The notes below the pieces were generated by a model that was not told the origin of the DNA, searched no databases, and worked only from the letters and a program-made list of their open reading frames with translations. Positions 7,540-54,468 of a stretch of DNA of 58,605 bases are shown here, in pieces (the stretch's first letter is position 1; the number at the start of each line of letters is the position of its first letter). The position numbers and the translations under genes were made by a program. Origin of the DNA: an uncultured Pirellulales bacterium (GTDB taxonomy: Bacteria > Planctomycetota > Phycisphaerae > Sedimentisphaerales > Anaerobacaceae). The stretch lies in assembly GCA_964597535.1 (NCBI GenBank), contig CAZQYB010000001.1:1-58605 (forward strand), given 5' to 3'.

Positions 7540-7840
7540 TTTTCTATCTCCTAAAAAGAGATTTTATCAAAAACACTAAAACACAAACGGCTTTACGCAT
7601 TTCAAATTAGCACCCGTCTCACTAATTGTCAACTTTTTTATTTTTTCAAAGATGGGCAGCAGGGCACATCGAGTTTGCCGGCAAAACAGCCCTTCGATAG
7701 CTGGTATGGGCAGTTTTATAAAAAGTGGCCGAAATTCGGATTTTTTGTAAACGAAATCTGATTTGGAGTCTCTATAATTACGAATATGTGCCCCGTTGCA
7801 CATCCGAGTTGTGTATAACTCAAGGGCTTTGCAAGACAAA

Positions 7841-8341: not shown

Positions 8342-8344
8342 GAT

Positions 8345-37819: not shown

Positions 37820-39187
37820 CTACTTTATCGCCTCCCCTATCGCCCCATTTTCGCTTACTTCAGTCAGTTTCACCCTCACCAGCTCATTTTTTTTCAGTTT
37901 TTTCCGCGTTTTTTCAAGGCAGACCGTAAAATATCTTTCGCTTCGCCCGCATATCGCCCCGTTACTATTTTCCAGAAGCACCGTAGCTGTTTCACTGATA
38001 AATTTTTGGCGAAACTTTTTGCCCAGCGTAACGTCTAAATTATGCAGTATTTTTGACCGCTCTTTTATAACCCTATTATCTACAGCGTCTTGCATCGTTG
38101 CTGCTGCGGTGCCTTTACGTGGCGAAAAGCTGAAAACGTGCATTTTTGCAAAGTCGACCTCTTTTGCCACATCCACTGTTTGCTGAAAGTCAGCGTCCGT
38201 TTCACCGGGGAAGCCGACTATGACGTCGGTGGTTATGGCGGGTCTGTCCAGCCGTGATTTGATTAGTTCAACAGCCCCCATAAATTCGTCGATTTCGTAT
38301 TGCCGGCGCATCTTTTTCAGTATTTTGTTCGAGCCGGACTGAGACGATAAGTGCAGATGTGGCATAATGTTACGATATTTGCAGAAAGTACCGAGCAGTC
38401 GCGGCGTTACATCGGTCGGCTCCAGCGAGCTCAGTCTTATCCTTGCCAGGTCAGGGATTTTGGCCATTTTTTCGAGCAAATCGGCTAATTTGTCGTTTCG
38501 CGGCCCATCCCAGTTTTTTTGCCTGACGCTTGTTTGGCCGTAAGCACCGAGAAACACTCCTGTTACGACAATTTCCTTATGGCCTGCTTTTACAAGTGCG
38601 TGGGCCTCTTGCAGGGCCACTTCGGCTGGCTTGCTGCGAACATTAGGCCGTGTATGGGGTATGATACAATAGCTGCAGTATCCGTCGCAGCCGTCTTGAA
38701 TTTTTAGAAAAGCCCTGGTTTGGCCCTTGAATGCTGTTAATTGCGTAAGCTGCGGTTGGTTAACAAGCTTATTTTTGCGCTTGATTTTAGTAGCGTTTTT
38801 TGTTCTAATAGTATTTGAATATGGGTGCAGATGCTGGGCAGCAGCTTTGCCGTTGACTATCCGGCTCAATGTGGTGGCGAGCTCATCTTGGCTCCTGATG
38901 AGACGGACATTTTCACCCGGATTGTTTAGTTCGCCGATTTGCACGGTCGGCAGACAGCCGGAAACAACCACGACAGCTTCCGGGCTTAGTTTTTGTGCTT
39001 TTCGGATGTACTGTCGGCTCTTAGCTGATGCGGTGTGGGTAACGCAGCAGGTGTTGACAACAACCAAATCGGGCTTGCCGGTAGTTTCGACCTGGTGTAG
39101 TCCGAGTCGCTCAAGCAGCTCCCGAATCTGCTGGCTTTCGTATTGATTGACTTTGCAGCCAAGAGTATTTATGGCAAAAGTCTTCAT
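37820..39187 (-). CDS. mtaB: radical-SAM methylthiotransferase, MtaB-like (tRNA ms2t6A)
   Basis: It has MKTFAINTLGCKVNQYESQ (N-terminal UPF0004 Cys), the radical SAM motif CDGYCSYC and a C-terminal TRAM-like end. I prefer ATG 39187 to 39226. Confidence 0.8.
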   Translation of the reverse strand: MKTFAINTLGCKVNQYESQQIRELLERLGLHQVETTGKPDLVVVNTCCVTHTASAKSRQYIRKAQKLSPEAVVVVSGCLPTVQIGELNNPGENVRLIRSQDELATTLSRIVNGKAAAQHLHPYSNTIRTKNATKIKRKNKLVNQPQLTQLTAFKGQTRAFLKIQDGCDGYCSYCIIPHTRPNVRSKPAEVALQEAHALVKAGHKEIVVTGVFLGAYGQTSVRQKNWDGPRNDKLADLLEKMAKIPDLARIRLSSLEPTDVTPRLLGTFCKYRNIMPHLHLSSQSGSNKILKKMRRQYEIDEFMGAVELIKSRLDRPAITTDVIVGFPGETDADFQQTVDVAKEVDFAKMHVFSFSPRKGTAAATMQDAVDNRVIKERSKILHNLDVTLGKKFRQKFISETATVLLENSNGAICGRSERYFTVCLEKTRKKLKKNELVRVKLTEVSENGAIGEAIK

Positions 39188-39268
39188 AATATGATATAAT
39201 TTACAGTTGTTGAAGCGAACTGGCAAGATTATTCAGACCAGGTTTGGACCGTGGGCAGGAGGTCCGTT

Positions 39269-41527
39269 ATGATGTCAAAATTCAATGCAGTTTGGGCGAT
39301 AGATTTAGGCAATAATTCTCTAAAGGCACTGCATCTAAACATTGAGGGCGAGGTTGTCGAAGTTATCGGGTTCGACAATATTGAGCACGGCAAAATTCTT
39401 ACCGATAGCAGTGTAACAGCAGTGGAAAGAGACGAGTTGATTGCCTTGAGTTTGCGCCGGTTTGTCAAGCAGAACAATTTGGGTGGAGATGATATAGTTG
39501 TTTCTGTGCCGAGCCAGAACAGTTTTGCGCGGTTCGTGAATCTGCCGCCTGTTGACTCGAAGCGTATTCCTGAAATCGTCAGGTTCGAGGCCGCTCAGCA
39601 GATTCCTTTTGATATTGACGATGTGCAATGGGACTGGCAGTTGATGACGGGACCCGAAAGTCCCGAAAACAAGGTTGGTATTTTTGCCATAAAGAATGAC
39701 GTGGTCATCTCGGCGTTGGAGTATTTTGGCATAGAAAATATAACGGTCAGCTACGTTCAGATGGCGCCTATGGCATTGTATAATTATATGTTGTATGACC
39801 GTCCCGATTTAATTAGTTCCGAGAATCAGGGAGTCATTGTTCTTGACATAGGCGCGGAAAACAGCGACCTGGTTGTCTGCACGAAGTCAACAGTTTGGCA
39901 GAGAAGTATTCCTATGGGAGGTAATGCCTTTACGAGGGCGATAGCGAATGCGTTTAAGCTCAATTTCGAAAGGGCTGAAAAGCTGAAACGTACTGCGCCA
40001 ATGAGCAAATATGCCCGGCAGATATTCCAGGCGATGAGACCGGTTTTCACGGATTTGGCCTCTGAAATCCAGCGTTCGCTGGGCTTTTACAGCAGTTCCA
40101 ATCCCAGTACTAAATTGGTCAGGGCCGTTGCTTTTGGCGGAGGGACGAAGATGCGTGGCCTGCTCAAGTACCTGAGGCAGACATTGCAAATGCCTATCGA
40201 AAGGCCTGATTCGTTTAAGAACCTCGCGATAGGTTCGGGTGTCTCAACGGCGAAATTCCATGAGAATGTTTCAGATTTCGGTATTGTTTATGGCCTTGCT
40301 TTGCAGGGTTTAGGGCTGGCCAAGATACAAAGTAACCTTCTGCCGCGCAGTATTGCGCGGTCAATGGTGTGGGCAGCTAAAGCCAAGTACTTTACTGCTG
40401 CAGCGTGTGTGCTGCTTCTGGTTTCAGTTATGAGTTTTGGGCGAACGCTTTTCGACAAAGCCGGTTACGGTAAGCACGAAACAGATCGAACCAAAATCAC
40501 TGATGTTATCACCACAGGCAACAAAGCCATAAGCAGACTCAAAACCGTAAAAGCTAAGGGTGCAGACTCGAAAGCGAGGATACAAAAAGCGTTTGAACCT
40601 TTTAAGTATCGTGATGTGATACCACTGTTGTATCAGACTGTATTGTCGCAGTTGCCGAGCGAGAAAAACTGTTCCGAGCGGAGACAAAAGCAGCTTTACA
40701 GTGCTTTTGCTGCCGGTAACGTAGAAACGGTTTTGCAGACGCCCCGCAAAGAGCGAAAGCAGATATTTGTAACGAGTATGTCAGTTCGCTTTGTAGAAGA
40801 TGTTGAGGCGGCGGGCTTTGGTGCCACAAGTTTGCAGAGCGGGGTGAGTAGAAAAAAGGAAGGTAGAAAAGCGGGTGAATTGGATGAAAGGGCTTTACAG
40901 GAGTTGGGGATGTTTGGGCGTGGACCAGGCGCTGAGTATCAGAAAACGTTTTATCTTAAGGCGGGTGCGGAAGGTGACGTCTCAGAGGAAGCGAAGCCTG
41001 GATTTGTGGTAACTATGACAGGGTATAGTCCCTATAGAAACCTGGGTGAATTGATGGACCCCGCCCATGTGAAGGACCATCCAAACAGATGGGGAGTTAT
41101 TACTCGACTGATGCATCTTGATGATATTGTTGATGGGAACAGTCCGTTTGAGTTATATAATAAAACCAAACTTGAGCATTTTAAGTTGGAAATAAAACCT
41201 ATAGACATAGATGCTGAAATGCTTCTAGGGATAGGTGTTGTGGGTATGAAGCGTGCTGAAAGTGGAGAGCAGGTTTTGATTGACCCTATGACAAAGGAGA
41301 CTGTCAGTAAGGTTGCTGAGCTGGACGAGCAAGGGAAAAGAAAGCTGAACGGATTAGGCAACGTTGTTTACGAGGTCAATGACCATTGGTTTACGCTGAA
41401 TGCGAAATTTGTCTGGAAAGATGCGCCTAAACAGACTGTTGAAAAGACTGCGACCCCCACAGTGAAGCGTGTGGAAGTTGGATGGGGGGAAGGGGAGAAA
41501 ACGGGCGCCAAAAAAGCCCCAAAATAA
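39269..41527 (+). CDS. PilM-like actin-fold ATPase fused to a TM segment (PilN-like position) and a ~370-aa C-terminal domain of unknown function
   Basis: AGGAGG lies 6 nt before ATG 39269. It has WAIDLGNNSLKAL (phosphate-1-like), VLDIGAENSDLVV and AFGGGTKMRGLLKYL blocks as in PilM/FtsA-type proteins. The TM segment is YFTAAACVLLLVSVMSF, at about aa 390. Confidence 0.7.
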   Translation: MMSKFNAVWAIDLGNNSLKALHLNIEGEVVEVIGFDNIEHGKILTDSSVTAVERDELIALSLRRFVKQNNLGGDDIVVSVPSQNSFARFVNLPPVDSKRIPEIVRFEAAQQIPFDIDDVQWDWQLMTGPESPENKVGIFAIKNDVVISALEYFGIENITVSYVQMAPMALYNYMLYDRPDLISSENQGVIVLDIGAENSDLVVCTKSTVWQRSIPMGGNAFTRAIANAFKLNFERAEKLKRTAPMSKYARQIFQAMRPVFTDLASEIQRSLGFYSSSNPSTKLVRAVAFGGGTKMRGLLKYLRQTLQMPIERPDSFKNLAIGSGVSTAKFHENVSDFGIVYGLALQGLGLAKIQSNLLPRSIARSMVWAAKAKYFTAAACVLLLVSVMSFGRTLFDKAGYGKHETDRTKITDVITTGNKAISRLKTVKAKGADSKARIQKAFEPFKYRDVIPLLYQTVLSQLPSEKNCSERRQKQLYSAFAAGNVETVLQTPRKERKQIFVTSMSVRFVEDVEAAGFGATSLQSGVSRKKEGRKAGELDERALQELGMFGRGPGAEYQKTFYLKAGAEGDVSEEAKPGFVVTMTGYSPYRNLGELMDPAHVKDHPNRWGVITRLMHLDDIVDGNSPFELYNKTKLEHFKLEIKPIDIDAEMLLGIGVVGMKRAESGEQVLIDPMTKETVSKVAELDEQGKRKLNGLGNVVYEVNDHWFTLNAKFVWKDAPKQTVEKTATPTVKRVEVGWGEGEKTGAKKAPK

Positions 41528-41548
41528 AAATAGTTTGGCGAGTTAAAA

Positions 41549-42934
41549 ATGGATATTTCGAGATTTAAAGATGTTATACGGAGTGTTTTTAAGAATTATT
41601 CATCGCTGTTGGTGCCGGTGGTGATAGGGCTGGTTGCTTTGCTTGTTTTTGTACCTACCCAATTAATGAGCAGCAAGCTCAAGAAGCGGATAGTAGATGA
41701 AAGTATTATGAATAGGGGCAGGAAAATTCAGCGTTTAAGGCAAAGCGCCCACTCCCGCTATCAATATAAAGAGGAGCAAAAGTATCAGCAAGCTTACGAA
41801 AAGGATGCCAACGGGATAGACCTTTTAACCAAACAAAGCACTCAAAGGGAGTTATTAAGCTATGAGATATTTCCTGAGCCGAAAGATGTCTCTGCATTTA
41901 TTTTCGAGGATTTTGGTAAGCAGTACCGCGAGGTGGTACGCGGGCTGCTTGCTCGTGTAAACGCCCGTGATTGTCCCACAGATGCCGAGTTAGACAGGGG
42001 TTTGGAAGGATTGCCAATGTCCTCTCATGCGGCTCGGCTAAGTGGTAAAGGAACGTCACATTCGAAGCTCAGGGAGGCGAGAACTACGATAGTAGATGTT
42101 CTTTGCCGAGAGAAAGCGGAATCAGCTTCTGTTTATGCGAATCCATCCGGTCTGAGCGGATATAAATTCTGGGAAGAATACGAACCGACCAGTTGGGCGG
42201 ACGCTGTTAAGGATTGCTGGTATTGGCAATTAAGTTACTGGATTATCGAAGATATTATCGATACTATTGATACTTTGAACTCTAACTCTGGGTCGAACAG
42301 TGTGTTAACATCGCCGGTCAAACAGCTTGTGAGCGTCAGTTTCCCCACGAGCAGCACAAAACTGGCGGCCAGGGTTAGAGCCAGGTCCGCGGAAAAAGCG
42401 GCAGGTGAAAAGCCAAAATATGTTATTTCGGTTAAAGATGTGCTTACAAAGCCCTGCACGGGAAGGTTGTCCAATAAAGATATTGATGTTGTGCATTTTA
42501 ACGTTATTGTTGTGGTTAGTACGAGGGCGATTTTTCCGTTTATGCAGCAGATTTGCAGCGCCAAGCGGCATAAATTCAGGGGTTGGGACGGCGAGGCGCA
42601 AGAGCAGCTCTTCAGGCATAATCAGATAACGATTTTAGAAAGTAAGATTGAGTCGATAGACCAAGAAGATAGTGCTCACGAGCTGTATCGTTATGGCGAA
42701 GATGCTGTGGTAGAATTGAATTTAATTTGTGAATATGTCTTTGACAAAGCCGGCTACGATAAAGTTAAGCCAAAAGCCGTCAAAGAATCTATTAAAGAAT
42801 CACTGAAGAAGTTAGCAGATGAAGAGGCAAAAGCAGAAAGAATGAAAATGAGGAAAGAAAGAAAGAAGGCAATAACCGGAGGCAAAGCCGAAACAGGAAA
42901 GAAAACCAAGAGAACTTTGCCGGAGATACCTTAA
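41549..42934 (+). CDS. bitopic membrane protein, function unknown (461 aa)
   Basis: It starts 21 nt after the PilM-like gene. It has an N-terminal TM (LLVPVVIGLVALLVFVPTQLM) and a lysine-rich tail. I recognise no motif. Confidence 0.55.
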   Translation: MDISRFKDVIRSVFKNYSSLLVPVVIGLVALLVFVPTQLMSSKLKKRIVDESIMNRGRKIQRLRQSAHSRYQYKEEQKYQQAYEKDANGIDLLTKQSTQRELLSYEIFPEPKDVSAFIFEDFGKQYREVVRGLLARVNARDCPTDAELDRGLEGLPMSSHAARLSGKGTSHSKLREARTTIVDVLCREKAESASVYANPSGLSGYKFWEEYEPTSWADAVKDCWYWQLSYWIIEDIIDTIDTLNSNSGSNSVLTSPVKQLVSVSFPTSSTKLAARVRARSAEKAAGEKPKYVISVKDVLTKPCTGRLSNKDIDVVHFNVIVVVSTRAIFPFMQQICSAKRHKFRGWDGEAQEQLFRHNQITILESKIESIDQEDSAHELYRYGEDAVVELNLICEYVFDKAGYDKVKPKAVKESIKESLKKLADEEAKAERMKMRKERKKAITGGKAETGKKTKRTLPEIP

Positions 42935-43001
42935 TTGCTTCTTTTTCTGCAAACTCGGCGGTAAATGATTTTGTTCATAATATTCGAAGCGGGAATTTTG
43001 A

Positions 43002-45047
43002 ATGAGTAAAAAAGGCAGCAATTTTTTTGAAGAACATATTGAAAAGGTTGTTTTAATCGTTGTAGGATTTGTGTGTCTGTGGCTTTTCGTTACACATGCC
43101 CTTTTCAGTCCCAACAAAGTTCTATACGATAATAAGAAGCTTAGCCCCGGCAAGATTGATGTTCACATAAGGCATCAGTCTGAGATTTTGGAGTACGAGA
43201 AGCTGAACAGCAAGCCTGAGCCGAAACCTCTATATGAGCCAAAGCGTGGTGAATTCATTGCTATGCTGGACTCGTCGATACGGGATGTTGACATTAGCGT
43301 CCTTTGGCCACTGCCTGGTTGCAGTTCCACGCCCTTAAGTGATAATAGAAGATATCATCTTCCACAGGTTAGTAAAATCGGCAAGGCATCGGTCGAGCGC
43401 ATCAGAGCAGTGGCTTATGTGCCTACAAAAGAGATTAGCAGGGAAAACCTTTATAGCAGAGACAATTCTGAGCCTAATGATATAGATTTTGTTACTGTAG
43501 AATCGACGATTGATATTGCCGGCTTGTCAAATAATTTTCACCAAAGTTTTGCCGGCGAAAATGTTTCAAAAGAATGGCGTGACCCGTGCCTTGCGAATCC
43601 GGTTTTTGCCGCTGTGCAGTTGCAAAGACAAGAACTGCTTGCCGATGGCAGTTCGAGTGATTGGCAGACTGTGCCCCGAACCAGGATTGACCACCACGAA
43701 GAAATGTTTGAAATTATAGAAGAGGCAGAGGAACTGCCTCCCGGCGGGGTAAAGGTGCGTCTGCTTAACTTTGATAACAGGCAAGCGATGATGAATTTAT
43801 TGCAGCCGGAGGCTTATAGGATTGCCTCTGCAGAAGAAGAATGGTTTCCTCCTACCGTGCATAAGAAATATGCGAAGTACCAAAAAGAAGCAGAAGTGCA
43901 GGAGAAGCGTGAAGCCAAGGAGGCGGAAAAGAAGAAGCGTGAGCAGGAGCGTGAAAAACTACGCGAAGGACGTCTCGGCGCAAGGTCCAGAACAATGCTT
44001 AATCCGGGAAGGATTGGCAGAAGTTACGACGACGAAGATTCCAGAAGTACACGAGGGTCTTTTGGTAGCGCAAGAGCGCTACGTGAGGATAGAGGACTGA
44101 GAAGAAGACGCCCGATAACGGAGCGTAGGAGTGAGAAGTTTGAGACCAAGAAAAAAACTCCGGAAAAAACTAAAAAGGTTGTAAAGGTAACATCGATGAG
44201 TGATTTCTATGATGAATACAATAAGCTTTTGATTACCGAAACGACGGATATTGCCAAGATGCGTGAGCCACTGGCGTTCTGGGCGCACGATGATACCGTT
44301 GAGCCGGGCAGGAGCTATCGATACAGGGTCCGGTTAGGGGTTTTTAATCCAATAGCTGGAACGGACCAGGTCTGCGAGCAAGATAGGTTACAGAAGAACA
44401 ATGTTATCTTATGGAGCAATTTTTCTGACGAAACGGAAACTGTAAAAATCCCGGCAAAGCTGTACTTCTTCCCGCACAGGATACAGGAGGCTGCTGAGAT
44501 TGTATGGGTTAAAGTCTGCCGGTATGCTTTGGGTTACTGGTACAGTGAGGACTTTAGAGTCAAGCAGGGAGAAGTTATAGGTAAGGTCGAGGTTGTTAAG
44601 TCGGAAGAGGTAGATTTAGAAAGCGTTGAGCAGAAAGAGAAGAAGGTGAGTGTTACAATACCCGAAACGGTTGATTATTCTACCGGAGCGATTTACGTGG
44701 ATGCTGTGCTTGTGAATAATTGGGCCGGTGGAAAGAATATGCGTGCCAGGCGTTATTATAATATGCTTTACAGTTTTGACGGCGCCAATATAGAGCATAT
44801 GCCTATTGACCGAAGTTATTGGGGCCGGGAACTGCAAACTAAGTTTAGTGAAATCGAAGAGTTCGAAAAAAAGCAGAAAAAACCTTTGCGAGATTGGGGC
44901 GCCAGGCCAACCGAGCGCAAACGCGTTTCAAAAGCCACTAAAGGCAAAGCCGGGGAGGAGGAAACAGGGAGGCGAGACAGAGACAGAGACAGAGGAGAAA
45001 TGGAAGCATTTCAGAAGATGCTGCAGAAGAGGAGGGGCGGGCGTTAA
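43002..45047 (+). CDS. bitopic membrane protein with a central K/E/R-rich disordered segment, function unknown (681 aa)
   Basis: It has an N-terminal TM (VVLIVVGFVCLWLFVTHALF) and a highly charged region at about aa 290-390. I recognise no motif. Confidence 0.55.
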   Translation: MSKKGSNFFEEHIEKVVLIVVGFVCLWLFVTHALFSPNKVLYDNKKLSPGKIDVHIRHQSEILEYEKLNSKPEPKPLYEPKRGEFIAMLDSSIRDVDISVLWPLPGCSSTPLSDNRRYHLPQVSKIGKASVERIRAVAYVPTKEISRENLYSRDNSEPNDIDFVTVESTIDIAGLSNNFHQSFAGENVSKEWRDPCLANPVFAAVQLQRQELLADGSSSDWQTVPRTRIDHHEEMFEIIEEAEELPPGGVKVRLLNFDNRQAMMNLLQPEAYRIASAEEEWFPPTVHKKYAKYQKEAEVQEKREAKEAEKKKREQEREKLREGRLGARSRTMLNPGRIGRSYDDEDSRSTRGSFGSARALREDRGLRRRRPITERRSEKFETKKKTPEKTKKVVKVTSMSDFYDEYNKLLITETTDIAKMREPLAFWAHDDTVEPGRSYRYRVRLGVFNPIAGTDQVCEQDRLQKNNVILWSNFSDETETVKIPAKLYFFPHRIQEAAEIVWVKVCRYALGYWYSEDFRVKQGEVIGKVEVVKSEEVDLESVEQKEKKVSVTIPETVDYSTGAIYVDAVLVNNWAGGKNMRARRYYNMLYSFDGANIEHMPIDRSYWGRELQTKFSEIEEFEKKQKKPLRDWGARPTERKRVSKATKGKAGEEETGRRDRDRDRGEMEAFQKMLQKRRGGR

Positions 45048-45433
45048 TTGGTCCCGAATGCCGGTTTAAGCGAGCGCATATAAGAAGTGCTGCCCGAATT
45101 AGTTAAGTCTCTTGCTCACAATCGGCTGTCACGATAAACTCACCTGTGGTGTCAAGTCTTCAATATCTTCACAGGATTGACCATGCGCAATGGTTCTGAT
45201 TTGCCCATCGTCGGAGGCATGTTTGGTTTGGGTCGAGTTTCTAATCGGTGCAGAAACAATCACATCAGGAAGTTCCAACGGAGCGGACACAGTAAGCAGC
45301 CCAATCTCACAAGAAAAACAGTCTTAAATCCGCGCGAAAGCTGTTAGCAAAGATTTTACATAAGTTTTACTTTGTGCTGACGCTCTGATGATTGAGAATA
45401 GTAATATCCGAACATTTCGAAAGGAAAGTTGAA

Positions 45434-48400
45434 GTGAAGGCGTCAGAGAAGTTTTCGTTAGTAGTTGTTTTGTTAGTTCTTTTTGCAAGCCAGGCGTGTG
45501 AGGCCCAATCCGTGAGGCCAAGAGAGAGTCGTCACGATGAACGGTTGGCCTACGCCAGGTCTCTTGCCGAGCAGGGGAAAATAGATAAAGCAGTGCAGCA
45601 GTACCAGATGTACTATGCAGATAATCCCGAAAAGCACTTGGCGCTGCTTTGGATTTCAGAACTGTATGCCGCCAACCGGCACATTGCGGAGGCTATTGAA
45701 TTTGAGGAAAAGTTTCTTGTAAGTGGCGATGAGTACCTGACCAAGGGTGCGCATTTTGAAGATCACTATAACAGACTTCTTCGGCTGTGGGAGAATGCGG
45801 GGTGCAATGAGGCAGCCCGAGACCATTACCTTGTGATGCTTGAAGCAGCAGGTGCAAAACCCGCTGAAGTGATTGTGGCACGGCTGATGCTTGGCAATGT
45901 TGAAGACCGGGCTAAAAACATTGCTGGTGCACGGGAGCATTATCTGGCGACATTAGAAATGGTTTCGCCGGCGGAGGGTAAGTTTCAAAAGGTGGTGAAT
46001 CATGTTTTGCTGCGTGAGTTTGTGCAAAAACGCTGGCTTGATGATGCTTTGACGGCTTACCGGAATTGGCCTGATTACGGGTATGTGACGCAGTTGGGCG
46101 AATGGCTCAGGCGCGAGGGACGCGGCTTTGAGATGCTGGAGTTGTACGAGGATTACCTTATTTCTAAACGGGGTGAAATCACGGAAGCGGCGCGCGGGCC
46201 ACATTGGGACGGCTATCACGGCCGTCATGGTTTGGCAGGGCGAGTTATTGATGAGCTGGTGTCGCTGGGTCAAGGCGACTCGCTTATAAAGGAACTTGGA
46301 GTCGCAATTGCGGAGCAACCCAACAATGCCGAGTTGTATAAAAACCTTGGGCATTTGTTTTTCAAGATGAAGCGCTACGAAGAAGGACTGGGCGAGCTTG
46401 AGAATTATTCGGCAGTTTTGGAGAGGCCTTTAGTAAGCGACTACCAGTGGATTGGCGGTCTTTGCGAAGGGGCGGGAATGATTAACAAAGCCGTCGACTT
46501 TTATGAGAAAGCACGCGACACAGAAATAACGGACGAGGAAGTACGCAGGGATCTTATGGTGTCTGCAAGGTACATTCCAATGGAAGAGCGTAAGGCGGAT
46601 TTCAAGGCCCGCATCATCAAATCGTTGGGCGACCTTTACTTGAAGCAAGAACGATGGGCCGATGCGGAAGAATGTTTTAAGGAGATTGTGGATTTGGACC
46701 CGAGGTGGGGCAGGGAGGAAGTTCAGACGACGCTGGCGACGATTTGGGAACGGATGGGAAAAGAGAACGCGTTTGTTGAGGACTTGAAAAACGAGGTTGC
46801 CAAGGACCCGTGCGATGTGAAGTTGAGGGTCAGGTATGCAGAAACACTTTCGAGAGCAGGAAAGCCAAAGGAATCGATTGAGGAATATGAGCAAGCGGTG
46901 GAGTTAGCACCGGAGGATTTGTCGGTTCGGTTGAAGCTGGCAGAAGCGTTAGCTAGGAGCAAGCAAAATGAGAAAGCTATTGCCGAGTATAAGCAGGTAT
47001 TCTATGCGGCGTGCCAAAAGGGGAAAGATGAGTTTCGGCGGGGCAAAGGTGGAGATGAGACTGAGCCCTGGCGGGTTTTGCACAGACTAGCTGGGTTCTG
47101 TGAGCGGGCCGGTGAAAAAGACAAGCTGTTGGAAATCTACGAAGAAGCGCTTAAGCTGATGGATTCGCCCGATACCAAATGGAAGCCGGAGCCGTATGCA
47201 AAAGAGAGAATTCTCAGAAATATGGTCGATATACTTGAGGAAAAGCGCGAGTATGGCAGTATTATCGATTTGTGTCTGGCGTACCGCGGGGAGCTGAAAG
47301 ACCGTGCCAGACGTTTCATCCAGCGTTGCTTCAGATGCGTTGATTCGGTCAAACCATTTGTGGCAGAGCTGCAAGAAGAGACAAGAGCAGAGCCTAACGA
47401 CCACTGGGGGCGTTTTATTCTTGGGGATATGCTGGTTGCGGAAAACCGCGAAGATAAAGCTGTAAGAGTTTACAAGAAGCTCCTGACGGATGTTTCTGTT
47501 GGGAGCAGAATACATCAGAATCTTGGATACGTCTTTGAGCGTATGAAGCAGTATGATGTGGCTGTAGAGACCTGGAAGAAAGAATTGGCGAACACGGAAA
47601 AGGGGAGCAAGGCTTACGGGCGCTGGCTTGGACGGATCGGAGATACATATCTCAGGCTCGGGGACAGGGAAAAAGCGGCTGAGTCTTACCGGAAAGCGAT
47701 AAGCTGCGATTCTTCCGAAGCAGGGTATCAACTGGGTCTTTTCAAAGCGACCGATGGGAAAGAAGGCATCAGCAAGCTCGACACGGCGGTGGTGAAACCG
47801 GCTGAGGCGGTTGAAGATTTGGGTACTATGCGGAGGCGTGCGGCGTTACTGCTGGAGCACAAGAAGGATTATGTCGAGTCGATTAAGGCATATGAACAGA
47901 TTCTGGAACGAGCCCCAACAGATATTGAAAGCATGGTTCGTCTGGGCGAGGCGTACGAGAAGCTCGGCAAGGCCAACGATGCGGTCGGCCTCTATGAAAA
48001 GGCACTGAGGATGCGGGCTTGGTCCCGCGGTTCGGATTATGGCGCGTATGGTAATCTGGAGCGGATTTACAGGCAGAGGGGGGAGGACAAGAAGTTGATT
48101 GGGCTTTTCACCACTCGCGGCGACTACAATGGATTAAAGCATTTCTACAGAAATCGCAAAGAGCCGGAGAAGTACCACGAATATCTTGTGTCGCGGTCGA
48201 AGCAGAAACCTGGGGAGATAAAGCTTCGTTTCTACCTGGGCCGAAGTTACCTTGACCGAAAGGAAATGTCCGAGGCACGGGAGATATTTGAGAAGTTGAG
48301 GCTTGAGTTAGTTGGTGATGACGGCAAGGTCAGCGATGAAAGGAATGCGATACAATTAGCCGAAGCTTTTGAAAGACTTGGTGACTTTAAACACGGATTG

Positions 48401-49741
48401 GAGATTCTGCTCGGAAGCGATTACGAGAATGCTCCTGCTCGAGGCGGGCGTGTAGGGCCGGTGCTTATGCGGCTTTATGCTAAGGTGGGTCGATTTGATA
48501 AGGCACTTGAGGTTTGCCGTATTAGACTGAAGCAAGACCCCAGGGGGCATCAGACAGTAAACATTGCAGAGCAGATTACGGAAGTTTCACGCAACTGTAC
48601 CAGAGGGCCGAAGTTACTGGACACTTTTCTTGAGGAAGTCAAGGCCGATATGCAGCAGCACCAGTATCGACGTTTTAGCGGTGCTGTTAAAGCGTATTTG
48701 GCGGCACATCCTGCAGAGCAAGACAGTGGAGATGCCGGGGTTGACCCAGTGGCTTTGTTAAGATATGGGCGGAGGGTCGAGGTTCCAAAAAATTGCCGGA
48801 GCTTCGCAGAGTTTCTTGAGAAGCTGGCCGTGCAGGCCGACACCGTTGCGACCCAGTCATTTATGGGGCGATACGGGCAGAAGAGGAAACCTCCTGGCAT
48901 ACAGATGGAGAACGCTTCGGCATTTGAGGTATTGGCTGCAGTGCTCAATGGTACAAATATCCCTATGGAAATGACTCAGGATGGGCACTGGGGGTTCTGT
49001 GAAAGTGGAGATAAAAGCAGGAAGATCTGCTACGGGGGGTCTGGTGGATTGATTTGCCGATTTGACGGTTTCAATCGGCGAGCTGACCGGCCGCATGTTT
49101 GGCTGCTCGGCAGGGTTATGTTTGAACCAGTGGTCAAACGGCACATAGCGTCAATTCAGTCGTTGTTTATGGTGCTCGAGGTGATTGATGACAGAGGCAG
49201 GCAGGTGCCGATACCCAAAGAGGAAGGACGCTGGGGCTATTCAGGTCAGATTGAAGTACTCCTTGGCAAGCAGAATCCACCGGCCAGAAGTGTCACGAAG
49301 TTGCGAGTTAAGACTGCAGTGGTTGTGTGTACAAAGTGGGTGACATTTACTGTGGAACGGCTGGACCACACCGAACCTATCGTGCTGGAAAAGGATGGAG
49401 TGAAGGTTCAAATTAAGCCTATTAGAGAGGTCAAGTGGGACAGGGAATCTCGCTGGGAGATACCGATTGATGTCCGGAGGAAGGATATCGAACTGAATGC
49501 GGAAGGCAAATTGGCAGTTGAGCTAAAAGACCAATTCTGCTTTGTTAACAAAGATGGCGAAAAACTACAAACACACTGGGGTGGTTTTTTTTCTTCAGGT
49601 GGTCATTCGGAAGTTAAGCTTCGTCCGGAGATTGGTACTTTTGACCCTGCGACTACATCTTTATTCATAAAAGAGCCGGCGGCCATCGAGATTGTGCCCT
49701 TCGAATTGACATTCCACAATATACCGATTATTGATAGATAA
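45434..49741 (+). CDS. giant secreted TPR-repeat protein (about 1435 aa) with a non-TPR C-terminal ~350 aa
   Basis: GTG 45434 follows AAGGAAAG and gives the signal peptide (M)KASEKFSLVVVLLVLFASQACEA; the track start at TTG 45392 is also possible. Many 34-aa TPR-like units are present, with a recurring A..Y..AL...P pattern. Confidence 0.7.
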   Translation: MKASEKFSLVVVLLVLFASQACEAQSVRPRESRHDERLAYARSLAEQGKIDKAVQQYQMYYADNPEKHLALLWISELYAANRHIAEAIEFEEKFLVSGDEYLTKGAHFEDHYNRLLRLWENAGCNEAARDHYLVMLEAAGAKPAEVIVARLMLGNVEDRAKNIAGAREHYLATLEMVSPAEGKFQKVVNHVLLREFVQKRWLDDALTAYRNWPDYGYVTQLGEWLRREGRGFEMLELYEDYLISKRGEITEAARGPHWDGYHGRHGLAGRVIDELVSLGQGDSLIKELGVAIAEQPNNAELYKNLGHLFFKMKRYEEGLGELENYSAVLERPLVSDYQWIGGLCEGAGMINKAVDFYEKARDTEITDEEVRRDLMVSARYIPMEERKADFKARIIKSLGDLYLKQERWADAEECFKEIVDLDPRWGREEVQTTLATIWERMGKENAFVEDLKNEVAKDPCDVKLRVRYAETLSRAGKPKESIEEYEQAVELAPEDLSVRLKLAEALARSKQNEKAIAEYKQVFYAACQKGKDEFRRGKGGDETEPWRVLHRLAGFCERAGEKDKLLEIYEEALKLMDSPDTKWKPEPYAKERILRNMVDILEEKREYGSIIDLCLAYRGELKDRARRFIQRCFRCVDSVKPFVAELQEETRAEPNDHWGRFILGDMLVAENREDKAVRVYKKLLTDVSVGSRIHQNLGYVFERMKQYDVAVETWKKELANTEKGSKAYGRWLGRIGDTYLRLGDREKAAESYRKAISCDSSEAGYQLGLFKATDGKEGISKLDTAVVKPAEAVEDLGTMRRRAALLLEHKKDYVESIKAYEQILERAPTDIESMVRLGEAYEKLGKANDAVGLYEKALRMRAWSRGSDYGAYGNLERIYRQRGEDKKLIGLFTTRGDYNGLKHFYRNRKEPEKYHEYLVSRSKQKPGEIKLRFYLGRSYLDRKEMSEAREIFEKLRLELVGDDGKVSDERNAIQLAEAFERLGDFKHGLEILLGSDYENAPARGGRVGPVLMRLYAKVGRFDKALEVCRIRLKQDPRGHQTVNIAEQITEVSRNCTRGPKLLDTFLEEVKADMQQHQYRRFSGAVKAYLAAHPAEQDSGDAGVDPVALLRYGRRVEVPKNCRSFAEFLEKLAVQADTVATQSFMGRYGQKRKPPGIQMENASAFEVLAAVLNGTNIPMEMTQDGHWGFCESGDKSRKICYGGSGGLICRFDGFNRRADRPHVWLLGRVMFEPVVKRHIASIQSLFMVLEVIDDRGRQVPIPKEEGRWGYSGQIEVLLGKQNPPARSVTKLRVKTAVVVCTKWVTFTVERLDHTEPIVLEKDGVKVQIKPIREVKWDRESRWEIPIDVRRKDIELNAEGKLAVELKDQFCFVNKDGEKLQTHWGGFFSSGGHSEVKLRPEIGTFDPATTSLFIKEPAAIEIVPFELTFHNIPIIDR

Positions 49742-49746
49742 CAAAA

Positions 49747-49779
49747 AACGCCGTCCGGGGACAACAAAAAGACGGCGTT
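49747..49779 (+). terminator. hairpin after the TPR gene (possible terminator, weak T-tail)
   Basis: A 9-bp stem pairs AACGCCGTC with GACGGCGTT around a 15-nt loop. An A-run lies 5' and only a short T stretch lies 3'. Confidence 0.4.
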
Positions 49780-49845
49780 ATGGTTTAAGTCGCTGCAAAG
49801 CAGAGGGTTAGGTTGTTTGTTGCACAGCTTTGGGCAAATAAAAGC

Positions 49846-49874
49846 TTGCAAATTCCATCTCTTAAACTTACACT
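49846..49874 (+). promoter_or_regulatory. sigma-70-like promoter upstream of ahcY
   Basis: The sequence is TTGCAA - 17 nt - TACACT, 35 nt before the ATG. Confidence 0.3.
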
Positions 49875-49908
49875 CACCGTTTCTGTTTGTTTTTGAAAGG
49901 GTTGATAA

Positions 49909-51168
49909 ATGAAGAGTGACATAGCCGATTTATCGCTGGCGGCTGAAGGAAAGAAACGAATTCTGTGGGCTGATAAAGATATGCCTGTTCTGGCGGCGAT
50001 TCGCCAAAGGTTTGCCGGGGTCAAGCCGTTGAAGGGCAAAGACGTTTCGGCTTGTTTGCATATAACCGCTGAGACGGCTAATCTGGCGCGGACATTAAAA
50101 GCGGGCGGGGCAAATGTTGCTCTCTGCGCATCTAATCCGCTAAGCACGCAGGACGATGTTGCCGCTTCACTGGTGAAAGATTTTGGGATACCTGTCTTTG
50201 CAATCTGCGGCGAAAATCGCAGGACTTACTACAAACACGTCAATGCGGCAATTGACCATAAGCCGGTCATTACATTTGACGATGGTGCTGATTTGGTGAA
50301 CGAATTACATACTCGCAGAAAGAAGGAGGCCCACCGGATTATTGCGAGTATGGAAGAGACTACGACCGGGGTTATTCGTCTGCGGGCGATGGCAAATGCC
50401 GGCTTGTTGAAGTTTCCGGTTATTGCCGTAAATGACGCTGCGACCAAGCACCTTTTCGACAATCGTTATGGCACGGGCCAGTCAACAGTCGATGGTATCA
50501 TTCGAGCGACCGATTTTCTGATGGGCGGCAAGAAGATTGTCGCGGCCGGGTACGGCTGGTGCGGTCGCGGCTTTGCTATGCGAGCAAGAGGGATGGGGGC
50601 GATTGTTATCATTACGGAAGTTGACGCAATCAAGGCGCTTGAAGCGGCTATGGACGGCTTCGAGGTTATGCCAATGGCGCAGGCGGCAAAGGTAGGCGAA
50701 CTATTTGTAACGCTTACCGGCAATAAAAACGTTATACGAGCTGAGCACTTCCGGGCGATGAAAGACAGGGCGGTTGTGGCAAACAGCGGGCATTTCAATG
50801 TTGAAATAGATATACCGGCTTTGAAGAAGATAAGCAAAAAGGTGAACCGTAACGTTCGCAACCATGTGGATGAATATGTCCTCAGAAATAACAAGCGGAT
50901 TTATCTTCTTGCTGAGGGGCGATTAATTAATCTTGCAGCCGCTGAGGGGCATCCTGCAAGTGTTATGGATATGAGCTTTGCGACACAGGCGCTGGAGTCT
51001 GAATATGTGATAAGAAAACAGGGCAAACTTGCTGTTGCAGTCCATGATGTCCCTATCAAGATAGAACAGCAGGTGAGCAGACTAAAACTGAAATCAATGT
51101 CGATTGGAATAGATAAACTTACGCCGGAACAGGTTAAGTATCTTGCCAGCAGTGGTGAAGGGACATAA
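49909..51168 (+). CDS. ahcY: adenosylhomocysteinase (short form)
   Basis: It has DLSLAAEGKKRILWA, LHITAETANLARTLKAGGA, the NAD loop GYGWCGRG and NSGHFNVEID. Confidence 0.93.
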   Translation: MKSDIADLSLAAEGKKRILWADKDMPVLAAIRQRFAGVKPLKGKDVSACLHITAETANLARTLKAGGANVALCASNPLSTQDDVAASLVKDFGIPVFAICGENRRTYYKHVNAAIDHKPVITFDDGADLVNELHTRRKKEAHRIIASMEETTTGVIRLRAMANAGLLKFPVIAVNDAATKHLFDNRYGTGQSTVDGIIRATDFLMGGKKIVAAGYGWCGRGFAMRARGMGAIVIITEVDAIKALEAAMDGFEVMPMAQAAKVGELFVTLTGNKNVIRAEHFRAMKDRAVVANSGHFNVEIDIPALKKISKKVNRNVRNHVDEYVLRNNKRIYLLAEGRLINLAAAEGHPASVMDMSFATQALESEYVIRKQGKLAVAVHDVPIKIEQQVSRLKLKSMSIGIDKLTPEQVKYLASSGEGT

Positions 51169-51230
51169 CCTGACTCGTATTGTGTGTTTCTTTTTTCGCG
51201 ATGCGCATCACGCCCAGCGGGGTGAGGCTT

Positions 51231-53096
51231 ATGAATGATAAAAAGATGGAAAAGGCGCCTAAAGTGGCGCCGAAGTCTTTTATGACTGTTGGCCCTGTCC
51301 TGCACTATAGTCATAAGAATGTTCAGAGATGTTGGCTGCTTGCTGTTGCGGTTTTTGCGCTGAGTTGTCTTTTCTGGTCGAAGATAGTGACGGGCTTATT
51401 CTGGTCGTTCGGCTTTCAGACCGTGGTTTCTCCCGAGCTTTGGCGTTTGAGCCGGTTTGTAACGGGCGGTGTCAGTATATTTGAATACCCCTGGCAGATT
51501 TTTGTTTTGGGGCTGCTTATGGGTATTTTGGCAATTGTGCCGGTGCTGGTATCGCAGCTTATGAGCTTCCGGTATAGTTTGCTTTTTATATTGGCGGTGT
51601 TTTTTTTAGCGAATTTGCCGGGCTTTGCGATTTGCATTTTGATAAGTTGTGTTGCGGCGGCGTGTCGTCCGCTTCGTTTTCGGTCTCGTTTTATTGCGAT
51701 AGCATTGTGTACGGCTCCGCAGCTTATTTATTGGGGATATTTCGGCGGTGCAAGGGGAGGAGACCCTGTTGAATGGGGATTTTCTTTTACACCCTGGATT
51801 TGTGCTTGGCTTGTTGGTTTGGGCATAGCGGGATTGGTTCTCGGTATAGGGCATTTTACGCGTTATCGGCCGGGGCTGGTCTGGGCCTTTACTTCCGGTT
51901 TTCTTTTGGTGGCTGTCATAACTTTTGAAATAAAAATAGGTTTTGATGAACTGGACTATCAACTCTATGTAGCCAAGAATAATCCCGAACAAGCGAGCGA
52001 ATTTCACGGCCGCAGTATAACAGAAGCTCTGGATGAAACGATTACGAATCCTGCTGTGAGAGGGTACTTGGCGGTCTTCTATCCTACCGAACCGATACTG
52101 CTTCGTGCGGAATTGAAAAGGAAAATTCAAACTCAGTTGAGATTGGACCGTTGGCCAAGCTGGTTTATAGTACCACCTGAGCTAATGTACCAGGATAAAA
52201 AACGATGGCTTTTCGAACAGTACGATTCGTTTATAAAGCGCCGTCCCCAAAGCGGTCGCATGCCTATGGTGCTTTACTACAAAGCACTTCTAAGTGAATA
52301 TAGCCCGGATATTAATACGTTGGGGCGAAAAGAGATATTACATTTTTACGATGATTACCCGTATGAGAGGTCGCGAGAGATATGGTGGTCGCTGTACATA
52401 AATTTTGGCGGTGCCCCGGAGTCACTCGAGGCACGATGGCGAATTGCCAGGCATTGGGCTGGTCGGGGTGAATTTGAGCAGGCCGATAAGCTTCTTGCGG
52501 AGGCGCAAACGATGACGACCGAGCGATTGAAACTGCTCGAGAGGCAACAGGCACAAAATGATACGTTCTTTAGCCCATTTCGTCCGCCGGCTGATTCAGC
52601 AATGACAATATCTAAACTAACCGAATTACAGCGAAGATTAAATCAATTGCGCAGTCTTATAGGGTTGGAAAATCGAACCGGCAAGCCGGCGTCGTCCGAG
52701 CGTTTGGCAAGATTTGTTATACTAAACCCACACGCTTTCAATTATGACCGGTACCTCGATGAATTGCTGGGGGAAATAGGCGATAGCGACCCTCTCCGTG
52801 ACAATATCCTTTTGGCTAAAGCAAAACTTATTGCCGATGAGCAACTGCAGACTGAAAAGTTAACTCAGCTGCACGAGCAGTTCAAAGGTAAGGACGGTGG
52901 GATAGAAGCGCTTTATGAATCGGCCCTTTTAAAAAAGAATTTGTGGCACCGGCAGAGTGAATTAAATTCGGAGCAGAGGGGAAAAACTCTTGCAGAGATG
53001 CGAGCGATTCTGACGAGTTTTATCGATTTGTATCCGGACAGCATCTTTGTGGAGCAGGCTAAAAAGCTCTTGAGCAATCTACCGGCGGTTAAATAG
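51231..53096 (+). CDS. polytopic membrane protein with a C-terminal soluble helical domain, function unknown
   Basis: It has about 8 hydrophobic segments and then ~330 aa of helical, charged sequence. The start is ambiguous among TTG 51180, ATG 51201 and ATG 51231. Confidence 0.5.
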   Translation: MNDKKMEKAPKVAPKSFMTVGPVLHYSHKNVQRCWLLAVAVFALSCLFWSKIVTGLFWSFGFQTVVSPELWRLSRFVTGGVSIFEYPWQIFVLGLLMGILAIVPVLVSQLMSFRYSLLFILAVFFLANLPGFAICILISCVAAACRPLRFRSRFIAIALCTAPQLIYWGYFGGARGGDPVEWGFSFTPWICAWLVGLGIAGLVLGIGHFTRYRPGLVWAFTSGFLLVAVITFEIKIGFDELDYQLYVAKNNPEQASEFHGRSITEALDETITNPAVRGYLAVFYPTEPILLRAELKRKIQTQLRLDRWPSWFIVPPELMYQDKKRWLFEQYDSFIKRRPQSGRMPMVLYYKALLSEYSPDINTLGRKEILHFYDDYPYERSREIWWSLYINFGGAPESLEARWRIARHWAGRGEFEQADKLLAEAQTMTTERLKLLERQQAQNDTFFSPFRPPADSAMTISKLTELQRRLNQLRSLIGLENRTGKPASSERLARFVILNPHAFNYDRYLDELLGEIGDSDPLRDNILLAKAKLIADEQLQTEKLTQLHEQFKGKDGGIEALYESALLKKNLWHRQSELNSEQRGKTLAEMRAILTSFIDLYPDSIFVEQAKKLLSNLPAVK

Positions 53097-53246
53097 TAGG
53101 TGATACTGTTTTTTGGTTTGGTTTTAATCTGCTGAGTTTGACGGTGATTGGCGAAGGAACATATAGTTTCGGATTGTTCCTGTGGGTTTTTCTCCGGCAG
53201 ACTTATTGTTTTTGCCCGGTATAACAGCGAGCGGGGGGGATTTGGG

Positions 53247-53274
53247 TTGACTTTTCTGAAAATTATGCTATCAT
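53247..53274 (+). promoter_or_regulatory. sigma-70-like promoter upstream of the GGDEF gene
   Basis: The sequence is TTGACT - 16 nt (ending TGC) - TATCAT. Confidence 0.3.
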
Positions 53275-53424
53275 AAAGGCCGATAATTAAGCGGTTTTCG
53301 TGGCCTTTTGAGTCTTTTTATGGCAGATGATTGAGCTTGCCCGCCAGAAGAACATAACAGAGCAGTGGCCCTTATCGAAGCTTCTTACCATTAAGGCCGA
53401 ACCGGATACCTGGGGTTTAAATAG

Positions 53425-54468
53425 ATGGAAACCTCTGATACAGACGCTCGAAAAATTTTGCTGGTAGGCGATATCGACAGGGCGTTTTCGGATGCCGATG
53501 GCGTCCGACGGCTTCCCTGCGAAATCTACGCGAATATACCTGATGCAATCGATGCTGCAGCGAAGAACAGCTTTGCAGCAATCGCTGTTGTAATGTCCGG
53601 CTTGTCGGGCAAATTAAATTCGGCCCTGAGGGCATTAAGGCAGGAAAATTGCGATGCGAAGATTGTTCTTCTGGTGCAAATGTATGAAGAGCCGGAAGCG
53701 ATGCAATTGGTTTGTTTGGCGTCGGACGGTGCAAGTGTTGCGGACGATTATTTGATTTGTCCGATTCAGGCAAATAGATTTTACGAGTCCATTATGCCGG
53801 TCCAGGGTCAGCGGACAGCCGAAGCGCTTGTACCTGTCGCCATCGATGCAGCAAGAGCAATGAAAATGAAGCAGCTTGAGGAGTTGGCTATCACCGATGA
53901 CTTGACCGGCCTGAAGAACAGAAGGTATATGTGGGAATTTTGCAGGCAAATCATTGAGCGTGCCAGGCGAGAAGACAGGCAGGCGACGCTGCTGATTTTC
54001 GATATTGATAACTTCAAGCATTACAATGATGTTTACGGTCATTTAGCGGGAGACGAAGTTCTGAAACAAGCTGCTGTTCTGATGCGTCGCTGCTGCCGAC
54101 AGCACGATGCTGTCGGCAGAATTGGTGGCGATGAATTTGCAGTGGTTTTCTGGGATGACCCGCGAAGAAGATCTGTTGACTTACAAGCCGAGAGACGCTC
54201 AACGACCGCTGACCATCCTAAAGAAGCCATTTTCATAGCAGAGCGATTTAGAAAAGAGTTACAGAACGCCGAACTGCATTTGTTGGGTCCTGAAGGCAAA
54301 GGGGTCTTGACGATAAGCGGAGGGCTGGCGAGCTTCCCACGAGATGGCTCAGCGATAGAGGCGCTTTTTAAGCAGGCGGACAAAGCACTTTTGGAGGCCA
54401 AGCGCAGCGGGAAAAACAGAATCTACCTGGTTGGTAAACCTAATAGCGATATCGCCGACATCGGATGA
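53425..54468 (+). CDS. diguanylate cyclase (GGDEF) with a degenerate receiver-like N-terminal domain
   Basis: It has LTGLKNRRYM, the active site RIGGDEFAV and an I-site-like RQHD five residues upstream. The N-terminal KILLVGDID... segment has receiver-like spacing, but no Asp is visible at the expected phospho-acceptor position (AAIAVVMSG). Confidence 0.85.
   Translation: METSDTDARKILLVGDIDRAFSDADGVRRLPCEIYANIPDAIDAAAKNSFAAIAVVMSGLSGKLNSALRALRQENCDAKIVLLVQMYEEPEAMQLVCLASDGASVADDYLICPIQANRFYESIMPVQGQRTAEALVPVAIDAARAMKMKQLEELAITDDLTGLKNRRYMWEFCRQIIERARREDRQATLLIFDIDNFKHYNDVYGHLAGDEVLKQAAVLMRRCCRQHDAVGRIGGDEFAVVFWDDPRRRSVDLQAERRSTTADHPKEAIFIAERFRKELQNAELHLLGPEGKGVLTISGGLASFPRDGSAIEALFKQADKALLEAKRSGKNRIYLVGKPNSDIADIG

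Follow-up and report, generated by a model that had tools for sequence, protein, structure and literature searches.

A three-gene locus of planctomycetes headed by a predicted PilM-PilN fusion: a probable diverged scaffold of the type IV pilus and type II secretion class

Gene content of the locus

Four large genes of the same orientation are located between positions 39269 and 49741 of the contig CAZQYB010000001.1, part of the draft genome (2.6 Mb, 242 contigs) of an uncultured planctomycete affiliated to the Sedimentisphaerales (GCA_964597535.1). The first of them codes for a PilM-like protein, and the question was to which machinery the PilM-like protein and its neighbours belong. The window analysed here is the entire contig of 58,605 nt, and statements on the absence of pilus genes in the window cover this contig only. 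Gene 1 (39269..41527, plus strand) is followed after 21 nt by gene 2 (41549..42934, plus strand) and after a further 67 nt by gene 3 (43002..45047, plus strand). A gap of 387 nt separates gene 3 from a gene for a protein with tetratricopeptide repeats (TPR; 45434..49741, plus strand). The three genes 39269-45047, in the following called the trio, are present as a single copy in the genome. Four co-oriented genes with these gaps, domains and topologies had been described in an original prediction made from the DNA sequence, and this description was accurate. Transmembrane and signal segments were located with a Kyte-Doolittle scan. Across 38800-50200, predicted promoters and terminators were not in excess of those in shuffled sequence, and the space from gene 3 to the TPR gene was free of them.

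Gene 1 is a predicted fusion of PilM and PilN

Gene 1 encodes 752 amino acids from the ATG at 39269 and ends in a lysine-rich tail. An alternative GTG start at 39251 would extend the product to 758 amino acids; the homologues align from the ATG. Residues 17-352 matched the family PF11104 (PilM_2) with an E value of 7e-36, and the score of 150.2 bits against TIGR01175 (pilM) was above the cut-off of 133. The phosphate and adenosine motifs of an ATP-binding PilM were seen in the sequence as IDLG, LDIGAE and GGGTK. The top NCBIfam family was NF045709 (Amuc_1101_fam, PilM-like pilus complex protein; 232.7 bits, E 1e-68). This alignment placed residues 41-456 on positions 32-449 of the 608 positions of the model and so extends beyond both the PilM domain and the transmembrane helix. 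Because the score is well under the equivalog cut-off of 650, gene 1 is classified on sequence grounds as a relative of Amuc_1101 and not as its equivalog. Full-length homologues number more than 2000, annotated to Planctomycetota, Phycisphaerae or Sedimentisphaerales; those listed had 60-95 % identity and are annotated as PilM in Planctomycetota.

About nine residues past the end of the PilM domain, the protein carries the motif NLLP (N362-L-L-P365; 40334..40345, plus strand). The conserved N-terminal peptide of PilN, INLLP, is gripped by PilM in the PilM-PilN peptide complex. We take the NLLP at the junction to be this N-terminal signature of PilN, the role in PilM binding being transferred from established knowledge. 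The motif was invariant in all 55 aligned gene 1 sequences of Phycisphaerae (N13 L14 L15 P16 of alignment A3), it was also found in two loci of other orders, and the fusion proteins of anammox bacteria described below have INLLP. The only hydrophobic segment of gene 1, a transmembrane helix of residues 378-402 (40382..40456, plus strand; mean hydropathy 1.89 over 19 residues), comes after the motif, as it does in PilN. It is followed by a periplasmic part of approximately 355 amino acids for which a search of the PDB revealed no relative. Within gene 1, conservation peaks in the PilM domain and at the junction and falls in the periplasmic part. Together, these features identify gene 1 as a predicted PilM-PilN fusion, with the actin-fold PilM and the NLLP motif plus transmembrane helix in one polypeptide.

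Gene 2 and gene 3

The product of gene 2, a bitopic protein of 461 amino acids, consists of an N-terminal transmembrane helix, long helices, an alpha/beta core and a tail rich in lysine and glutamate. Sequence searches of Pfam, NCBIfam and the PDB were negative, and the Amuc_1100 entries of the PDB were also missed by profile. The family NF045710, considered as a family model for Amuc_1100, proved to be an unrelated family. Structure comparison was more informative. An AlphaFold2 model (mean predicted local distance difference test, pLDDT, of 86.6; predicted template modelling score, pTM, of 0.77) was compared with Foldseek to 350,542 PDB chains. Ranks 1-9 were chains of Amuc_1100 (6lad, 6laf, 6kny; probability 0.94-1.00) with template modelling (TM) scores of 0.46-0.56 by target and E values of 1e-3 to 1.5e-2. 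PilO structures of Pseudomonas and Myxococcus came next (2rjz, 5uvr, 3jc8_O; probability 0.98-1.00, TM score by target 0.40-0.52). The model thus indicates that gene 2 shares the Amuc_1100/PilO fold; since the sequence signal is nil, the relation is one of fold level only.

Gene 3 codes for a bitopic protein of 681 amino acids. In its AlphaFold2 model (mean pLDDT 80.4), the transmembrane helix of residues 8-34 is followed by an alpha/beta domain at about 120-270, a helix at 284-327, a disordered linker of lysine, glutamate and arginine at 332-392, a beta-sandwich at 424-600 and a charged tail. Half of the residues from 285 to 400 (50 %) are K, R, E or D, and pLDDT values were below 50 over 332-392. 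Against the same PDB chains, only low-probability matches to Ig/FnIII-like domains were obtained, without PilP or GspC, and an identification of gene 3 as PilP or GspC was rejected on this result. Sequence and profile searches of Pfam, NCBIfam and the PDB were empty, those of NCBIfam also for five homologues. Unlike the lipoprotein PilP, gene 3 starts with a transmembrane helix and not with a lipobox. It holds the position of PilP or GspC in the gene order; for homology to either, no test gave support. In a collection of 1.84 billion proteins, a profile of the C-terminal domain of gene 3 matched 2439 representative clusters. In the best 150 of these 2439 matches the domain was C-terminal, and most of these proteins had a length of 590-755 amino acids. 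Low-complexity tails rich in lysine, glutamate and arginine are the ends of all three scaffold proteins (41430-41524, 42764-42931 and 44874-45044), and the linker of gene 3 has a similar composition (43854-44200).

Conservation of three genes, but not of the fourth

The gene order was surveyed in 80 loci of species-level genomes of Phycisphaerae and was scored where the contig reached far enough. The order gene 1-gene 2-gene 3 was kept in all 80 loci wherever the flank was read. Upstream, a MiaB/RimO-like radical SAM gene on the minus strand was found, as in the window, where this divergent gene precedes the trio and the TPR gene and an AdoHcyase gene follow. Housekeeping genes flank the trio in the 80 loci as in the window. 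Downstream of gene 3 the neighbourhood varies: in many loci AdoHcyase comes directly after it, in many others a convergent gene of about 840 amino acids without relation to the trio, and sometimes a peptidase-like or other gene. The trio was also present in six loci of other orders or other parts of the phylum (L105-L109, L118), and the flanks of L105-L108 were housekeeping genes, e.g., MnmA or NIF3, or genes without family match. Profile-profile comparisons with the distant copies in L106, L107 and L118 had probabilities of 91 % for gene 2 (E 1.3e-7) and 98 % for gene 3 (E 1.5e-13).

The spread of gene 1 was assessed with the NF045709 profile in 201 genomes of Planctomycetota from 171 genera at a threshold of E 1e-20 or better. 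Matches were obtained in 195 genomes and 167 genera. Among the best 150 matches, most were open frames of 536-897 amino acids, with about five shorter ones at contig ends, and the alignments extended to model positions of about 412-568, past the PilM domain. At a looser threshold, one genus remained without any match, represented by three complete genomes of 3.4-3.9 Mb (G135, G171, G188). It appears that this genus lost the system. Two other genera of its family carry the long fusion in open frames of 770-801 amino acids.

The TPR gene behaved differently. Its open reading frame covers 45392-49741, with a likely GTG start at 45434 behind the ribosome-binding site AGGAAAG. The product of about 1435 amino acids has a signal peptide-like start, TPR repeats (TPR families matched with E values down to 3e-35) and a beta-rich C-terminal region of about 300 amino acids, in which a match to STN stayed below threshold (E 0.029; 14.6 bits versus a gathering score of 28.4). 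After gene 3 of the 80 related loci, no TPR homologue was found except a remnant of 55 amino acids in L015. The gene was absent from L121 and L122, the gene 1 of which is 74 % and 71 % identical to that of the window; there, AdoHcyase directly follows gene 3. Within the genome, no paralogue was detected. The TPR gene is retained in a sister strain (L120; 98.2 % nucleotide identity to the window over 13.6 kb), where it is 99.5 % identical at the nucleotide level. In this copy (7517-11863), the window's Glu codon is replaced by an in-frame TAG (AFV*DLKNEV), which leaves open reading frames of 448 and 974 amino acids.

Mismatches between the two strains were counted per 500 nt along 37879-51364 of the window. 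The radical SAM gene and the PilM domain had 1-5, the periplasmic parts of the scaffold genes 8-19, the linker region of gene 3 (43879-44366) had 44 and the TPR gene 0-7. The extracytoplasmic parts of the scaffold show the fastest evolution, and the two strains seem to have come to share the TPR gene recently. Because it is missing in relatives and has a stop codon in the sister strain, the TPR gene is apparently a recent, dispensable insertion at the species level. Synteny and the stop codon rule it out as a conserved fourth member, and it is best kept out of the annotation of the system. The original prediction had treated the four genes as one cluster; the conserved unit is a predicted operon of the first three genes, 39269-45047.

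Some neighbours recur over long distances. Genes for tRNA modification are found just upstream of the operon across distant lineages: the radical SAM gene (37820-39226 of the window, minus strand) in nearly all Sedimentisphaerales, MnmA in L106 (4211-5332), and a MiaA-like gene in anammox bacteria (L116, 11835-12842; L117, 11075-12058), the latter assigned by the motif GPTASGKT alone. Downstream of the operon, the AdoHcyase gene, a gene for a multi-pass membrane protein of 638 amino acids without family match and a GGDEF cyclase gene (49909-54468 of the window) stay grouped in many relatives.

Pilus and secretion genes elsewhere in the genome

Pfam scans of all open reading frames of the window with at least 150 amino acids revealed no secretin, no T2SSE (pilus ATPase), no T2SSF (PilC) and no pilin. 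A six-frame search for the prepilin motif had no match in the window versus 25 elsewhere in the genome, on 18 contigs. The claim that the window is devoid of pilus genes was thus confirmed. The genome as a whole holds an unusually large set of pilus- and secretion-type systems for its 2.6 Mb. Ten secretin matches were obtained, nine of them above the Pfam cut-off and none on the contig of the window. Contigs with genes of this type are C2, C3, C5, C9, C10, C11, C20, C59 and C149, and three of the secretins are encoded in open frames of 1000-1130 amino acids. A canonical cluster on C10 comprises a PilB-like ATPase, PilC, four prepilin-type genes, PilM (358 amino acids), PilN (213 amino acids), PilO (189 amino acids) and a secretin. 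Since this cluster is complete, the trio is a system additional to the canonical pilus. Further PilM-like genes adjoin secretins on C5 and C3. The secretin on C5 had the best match to the TPR-secretins of anammox bacteria and was considered as a partner of the trio; as it lies already beside another PilM-like gene, it could not be assigned to the trio.

Gene clusters of anammox bacteria

In one family of genomes, identified as anammox bacteria by two hydrazine synthase alpha genes each, the fusion gene occurs next to a secretin. In both genomes examined (L116, L117) the fusion has 581-599 amino acids, contains INLLP and has a match running past the transmembrane helix. The gene 1 profile scored about 200 bits on the anammox fusion versus 74 bits on the canonical PilM of the genome. 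Two genes for bitopic proteins of 301-304 and 264-266 amino acids follow in both genomes, and then a protein of 736-844 amino acids in which a secretin domain (E of about 1e-25) is combined with an N-terminal TPR region, the 736-amino acid copy with a weak STN match. These TPR-secretin genes are located directly after the operon of the PilM-PilN fusion, on the minus strand (L116, 5729-7939; L117, 4508-7042). In L117 only, genes for GspH-like, PilX-like and other N-methyl pilins follow. The lineage of L119 presents a fusion gene followed by one gene of 264 amino acids, a TPR protein of 884 amino acids and a T2SSG-like prepilin; a weak T2SSM_b match on the 264-amino acid partner (E 0.03) was the only T2SSM-like signal. 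A description of clusters of the L116 and L117 type was not found in the literature.

These arrangements mirror the gene order of Akkermansia, and we therefore argue, mainly from gene 1 and the gene order, that the stand-alone trio may descend from a full cluster of the pilus or secretion type.

Comparison with known systems

In Akkermansia, the genes are ordered as pilin-like 1102, PilM-like 1101, 1100, 1099 and secretin 1098 (PMC5332112). The genes amuc_1099-1102 constitute MUL2, with Amuc_1101 (MUL2B) as PilM (PMC13174399), and mucin products accumulate inside Akkermansia only with the MUL genes (PMC12418764, PMC13174399). The trio resembles MUL2 in the long PilM-like first gene, with Amuc_1101_fam as best family and an alignment into the membrane-proximal region, in the predicted Amuc_1100-like fold of gene 2, and in the position and direction of a third gene, which also codes for a membrane-anchored protein. 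Both lineages are members of the Planctomycetes-Verrucomicrobia-Chlamydiae (PVC) group. Unlike MUL2, the trio has no pilin-like Amuc_1102 upstream and no Amuc_1098 secretin downstream, and gene 2 has 461 amino acids, while the crystallised chains of Amuc_1100 in the PDB have 171-197 residues. In the literature searched, the Akkermansia locus was described within the Verrucomicrobiota only, and a description of the planctomycete trio was not found.

With the PilMNOP proteins of type IVa pili (Pseudomonas, Myxococcus, Thermus), the trio shares an actin-fold PilM, the NLLP motif followed by a transmembrane helix, a bitopic partner with a predicted fold like that of PilO and, as third component, a periplasmic protein that combines a beta-sandwich with a flexible linker. 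In contrast to PilMNOP, PilM and PilN of the trio are one polypeptide, pilQ is not adjacent, the periplasmic domains have two to three times the size and are without the sequence signatures of PilN, PilO and PilP, and gene 3 is anchored by a transmembrane helix instead of being a lipoprotein and has a fold unlike PilP.

In the type II secretion system (T2SS), GspL is a single chain made of a cytoplasmic actin-like domain, a transmembrane helix and a periplasmic domain, the bitopic GspM resembles PilO, and GspC is membrane-anchored and reaches the secretin. By this established knowledge the trio has a parallel architecture to GspL-GspM-GspC. GspL is without an NLLP motif, unlike gene 1, on which the match to T2SSL was below threshold (E 0.065; 13.1 bits versus a cut-off of 25.5). 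Pfam scans of genes 2 and 3 gave no T2SSM or T2SSC match, so by signature the trio is not a GspL-GspM-GspC. The anammox clusters of L116 and L117 have the family of PilM-PilN fusions in common with the trio, but their partner proteins are short and a secretin adjoins in both, pilins in one.

A probable alignment scaffold

We consider it likely, with a good part of the probability on this side, that the trio is a strongly diverged inner-membrane and periplasmic alignment scaffold of a machine of the type IV pilus/T2SS class, typical of planctomycetes, and the planctomycete counterpart of the Akkermansia genes Amuc_1101-1100-1099 (MUL2). Domain identities, the fusion, the fold similarity, synteny and the phyletic spread were established directly. 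The arrangement in the cell can be drawn tentatively from these. The PilM domain under the membrane would hold the NLLP segment of its own or of a neighbouring chain, and the PilN-like periplasmic part of gene 1 would pair with the PilO-like product of gene 2. The flexible charged linker of gene 3 may let the beta-sandwich reach toward a secretin of the outer membrane. This secretin, the motor ATPase, the platform protein and the pilins would be products of genes elsewhere in the genome.

Several results weigh against this interpretation. The periplasmic 355 amino acids of gene 1 did not match PF05137 (PilN) in any of the 55 members at E values up to 10, and a profile comparison with the PilN of the same genome was negative, as was that of genes 2 and 3 with the genome's PilN and PilO. 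Scans of Pfam and NCBIfam gave no match of genes 2 and 3 to PilO, PilP, GspM or GspC at the sequence level, and the scores of the structural match of gene 2 to Amuc_1100 were modest (E about 1e-3; TM score 0.2-0.26 by query length). Among 49 members of gene 3, a PilP or T2SSC family match was absent. The bitopic proteins of the anammox clusters had almost no similarity to genes 2 and 3 in profile comparisons; the best value was 50 % for the beta domain of gene 3. Neither in Phycisphaerae nor in the other non-anammox lineages examined was a motor, pilin or secretin found near the trio. Finally, the near-universal presence in the phylum, including the autotrophic anammox bacteria, fits poorly to a role in polymer feeding.

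Alternative explanations

The original prediction had proposed that a PilM-type ATPase was borrowed for some task other than pili. In this view the trio would serve, e.g., as a scaffold of cell division or envelope growth, or as a platform that exports the giant surface proteins encoded in the window. The trio was never beside pilus genes in the 80 Phycisphaerae or the other non-anammox lineages examined, its partner proteins have two to three times the size of PilO or PilP, and the presence in 195 of 201 genomes of very different lifestyles suggests a core function. Planctomycetes have all lost ftsZ, and most of them ftsA (PMC12673574). However, models of FtsA fail on gene 1 (TIGR01174, 34.6 bits versus a cut-off of 175.85; PRK09472, 18.9 versus 409), the Pfam match to FtsA is restricted to the shared actin-fold subdomain, and the PilM model passes. 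Gene 1 as a PilM-PilN fusion with invariant NLLP, the PilO/Amuc_1100 fold of gene 2 and the anammox fusion beside a TPR-STN-secretin, with minor pilins in one genome, speak for a relation to pili. In Akkermansia, which possesses FtsZ, the related locus serves mucin use (PMC12418764, PMC13174399). The LamG-rich giant genes of the window adjoin the trio in only one relative examined (L121) and are thus not linked to it. Recruitment to a non-pilus machine is therefore unlikely in our estimation, and this part of the original prediction was not upheld, while its core stands: a scaffold spanning membrane and periplasm, led by a PilM-type protein and located apart from pilus genes and from the canonical cluster on C10.

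Two further explanations differ in how many genes are counted in and how ordinary these are. If all four genes were one system, the TPR protein would be an outer membrane-proximal partner, a pilotin or a docking protein for the secretin, and kin of the anammox TPR-STN-secretins. It is co-oriented, it takes the position behind the scaffold genes that is held by a TPR-STN-secretin in L116 and L117 and by a TPR protein in L119, and it has the weak STN match. Yet this match stayed far below the gathering score, the likeness to anammox TPR-secretins is that of generic TPR, and the gap of 387 nt, the lack of the gene in the 80 relatives and at 71-74 % identity, and the stop codon of the sister strain leave this explanation a very low probability. 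Even less credit can be given to an ordinary type IVa PilMNOP that was displaced from its pilus genes. The score above the pilM cut-off would fit, as would the annotation of homologues as 'type IV pilus assembly protein PilM'. The genome, however, has its complete canonical cluster with its own PilM, PilN, PilO and secretin on C10, and PilM-like genes beside secretins on C5 and C3; the gene 1 profile gave the canonical PilM just 74 bits, and the partners in the trio are without sequence signal of PilN, PilO or PilP. The original prediction had described an ordinary alignment complex as one of long orthologues of the Pil proteins, detectable by structure-based searches, with canonical pilus genes close by. 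This applies by half: two of the partners can be read as extended forms of PilN and PilO, gene 2 being matched to Amuc_1100 and PilO by structure, but the third, with its low-probability Ig/FnIII matches, has no assignment, and canonical pilus genes were not adjacent in the 80 relatives.

Possible role in planctomycetes

For the probable alignment scaffold, the assembly of a surface fibre for the capture or import of polymers is our leading guess by analogy with MUL2, a tentative one that may well be wrong. An absence from anammox bacteria was considered as support for polymer feeding and had to be abandoned, as anammox genomes carry the fusion. Because these bacteria are autotrophic, a more general role than polymer feeding can be argued.

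Crateriform 'press-stud' complexes of planctomycetes tie the outer to the cytoplasmic membrane, and the fibres that arise from them bind dextran before its uptake; the proteins of these structures are unidentified (PMC5394234, PMC12673574). As a speculation to which we assign a small probability, the trio may be the membrane and periplasmic core of the apparatus of crateriform structures and fibres, with a common origin with MUL2. This proposal is in line with the near-universality, the independence from canonical pili, periplasmic domains whose enlarged size would suit a widened periplasm, and an ancestral connection to a TPR-secretin; none of them tests it. If true, a shared envelope machine of the PVC group for the capture and import of large polymers would emerge.

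The homologues of gene 1 merit the label PilM-PilN fusion; public annotation has 'PilM' for them and leaves genes 2 and 3 unnamed. An evolutionary series becomes apparent, from compact genes beside a secretin in anammox bacteria, with pilins in one, to enlarged partners that stand alone in Phycisphaerae. Through the trio, Amuc_1100, which has been much studied for its host effects, would be connected to a structural role like that of PilO in a machine common to PVC phyla. It is present in about 97 % of the sampled genomes of the phylum and related to a locus for mucin use. For crateriform structures, fibres and the uptake of whole macromolecules into an enlarged periplasm, hallmark features of planctomycetes that still lack their proteins, the trio is a candidate that can be tested genetically.

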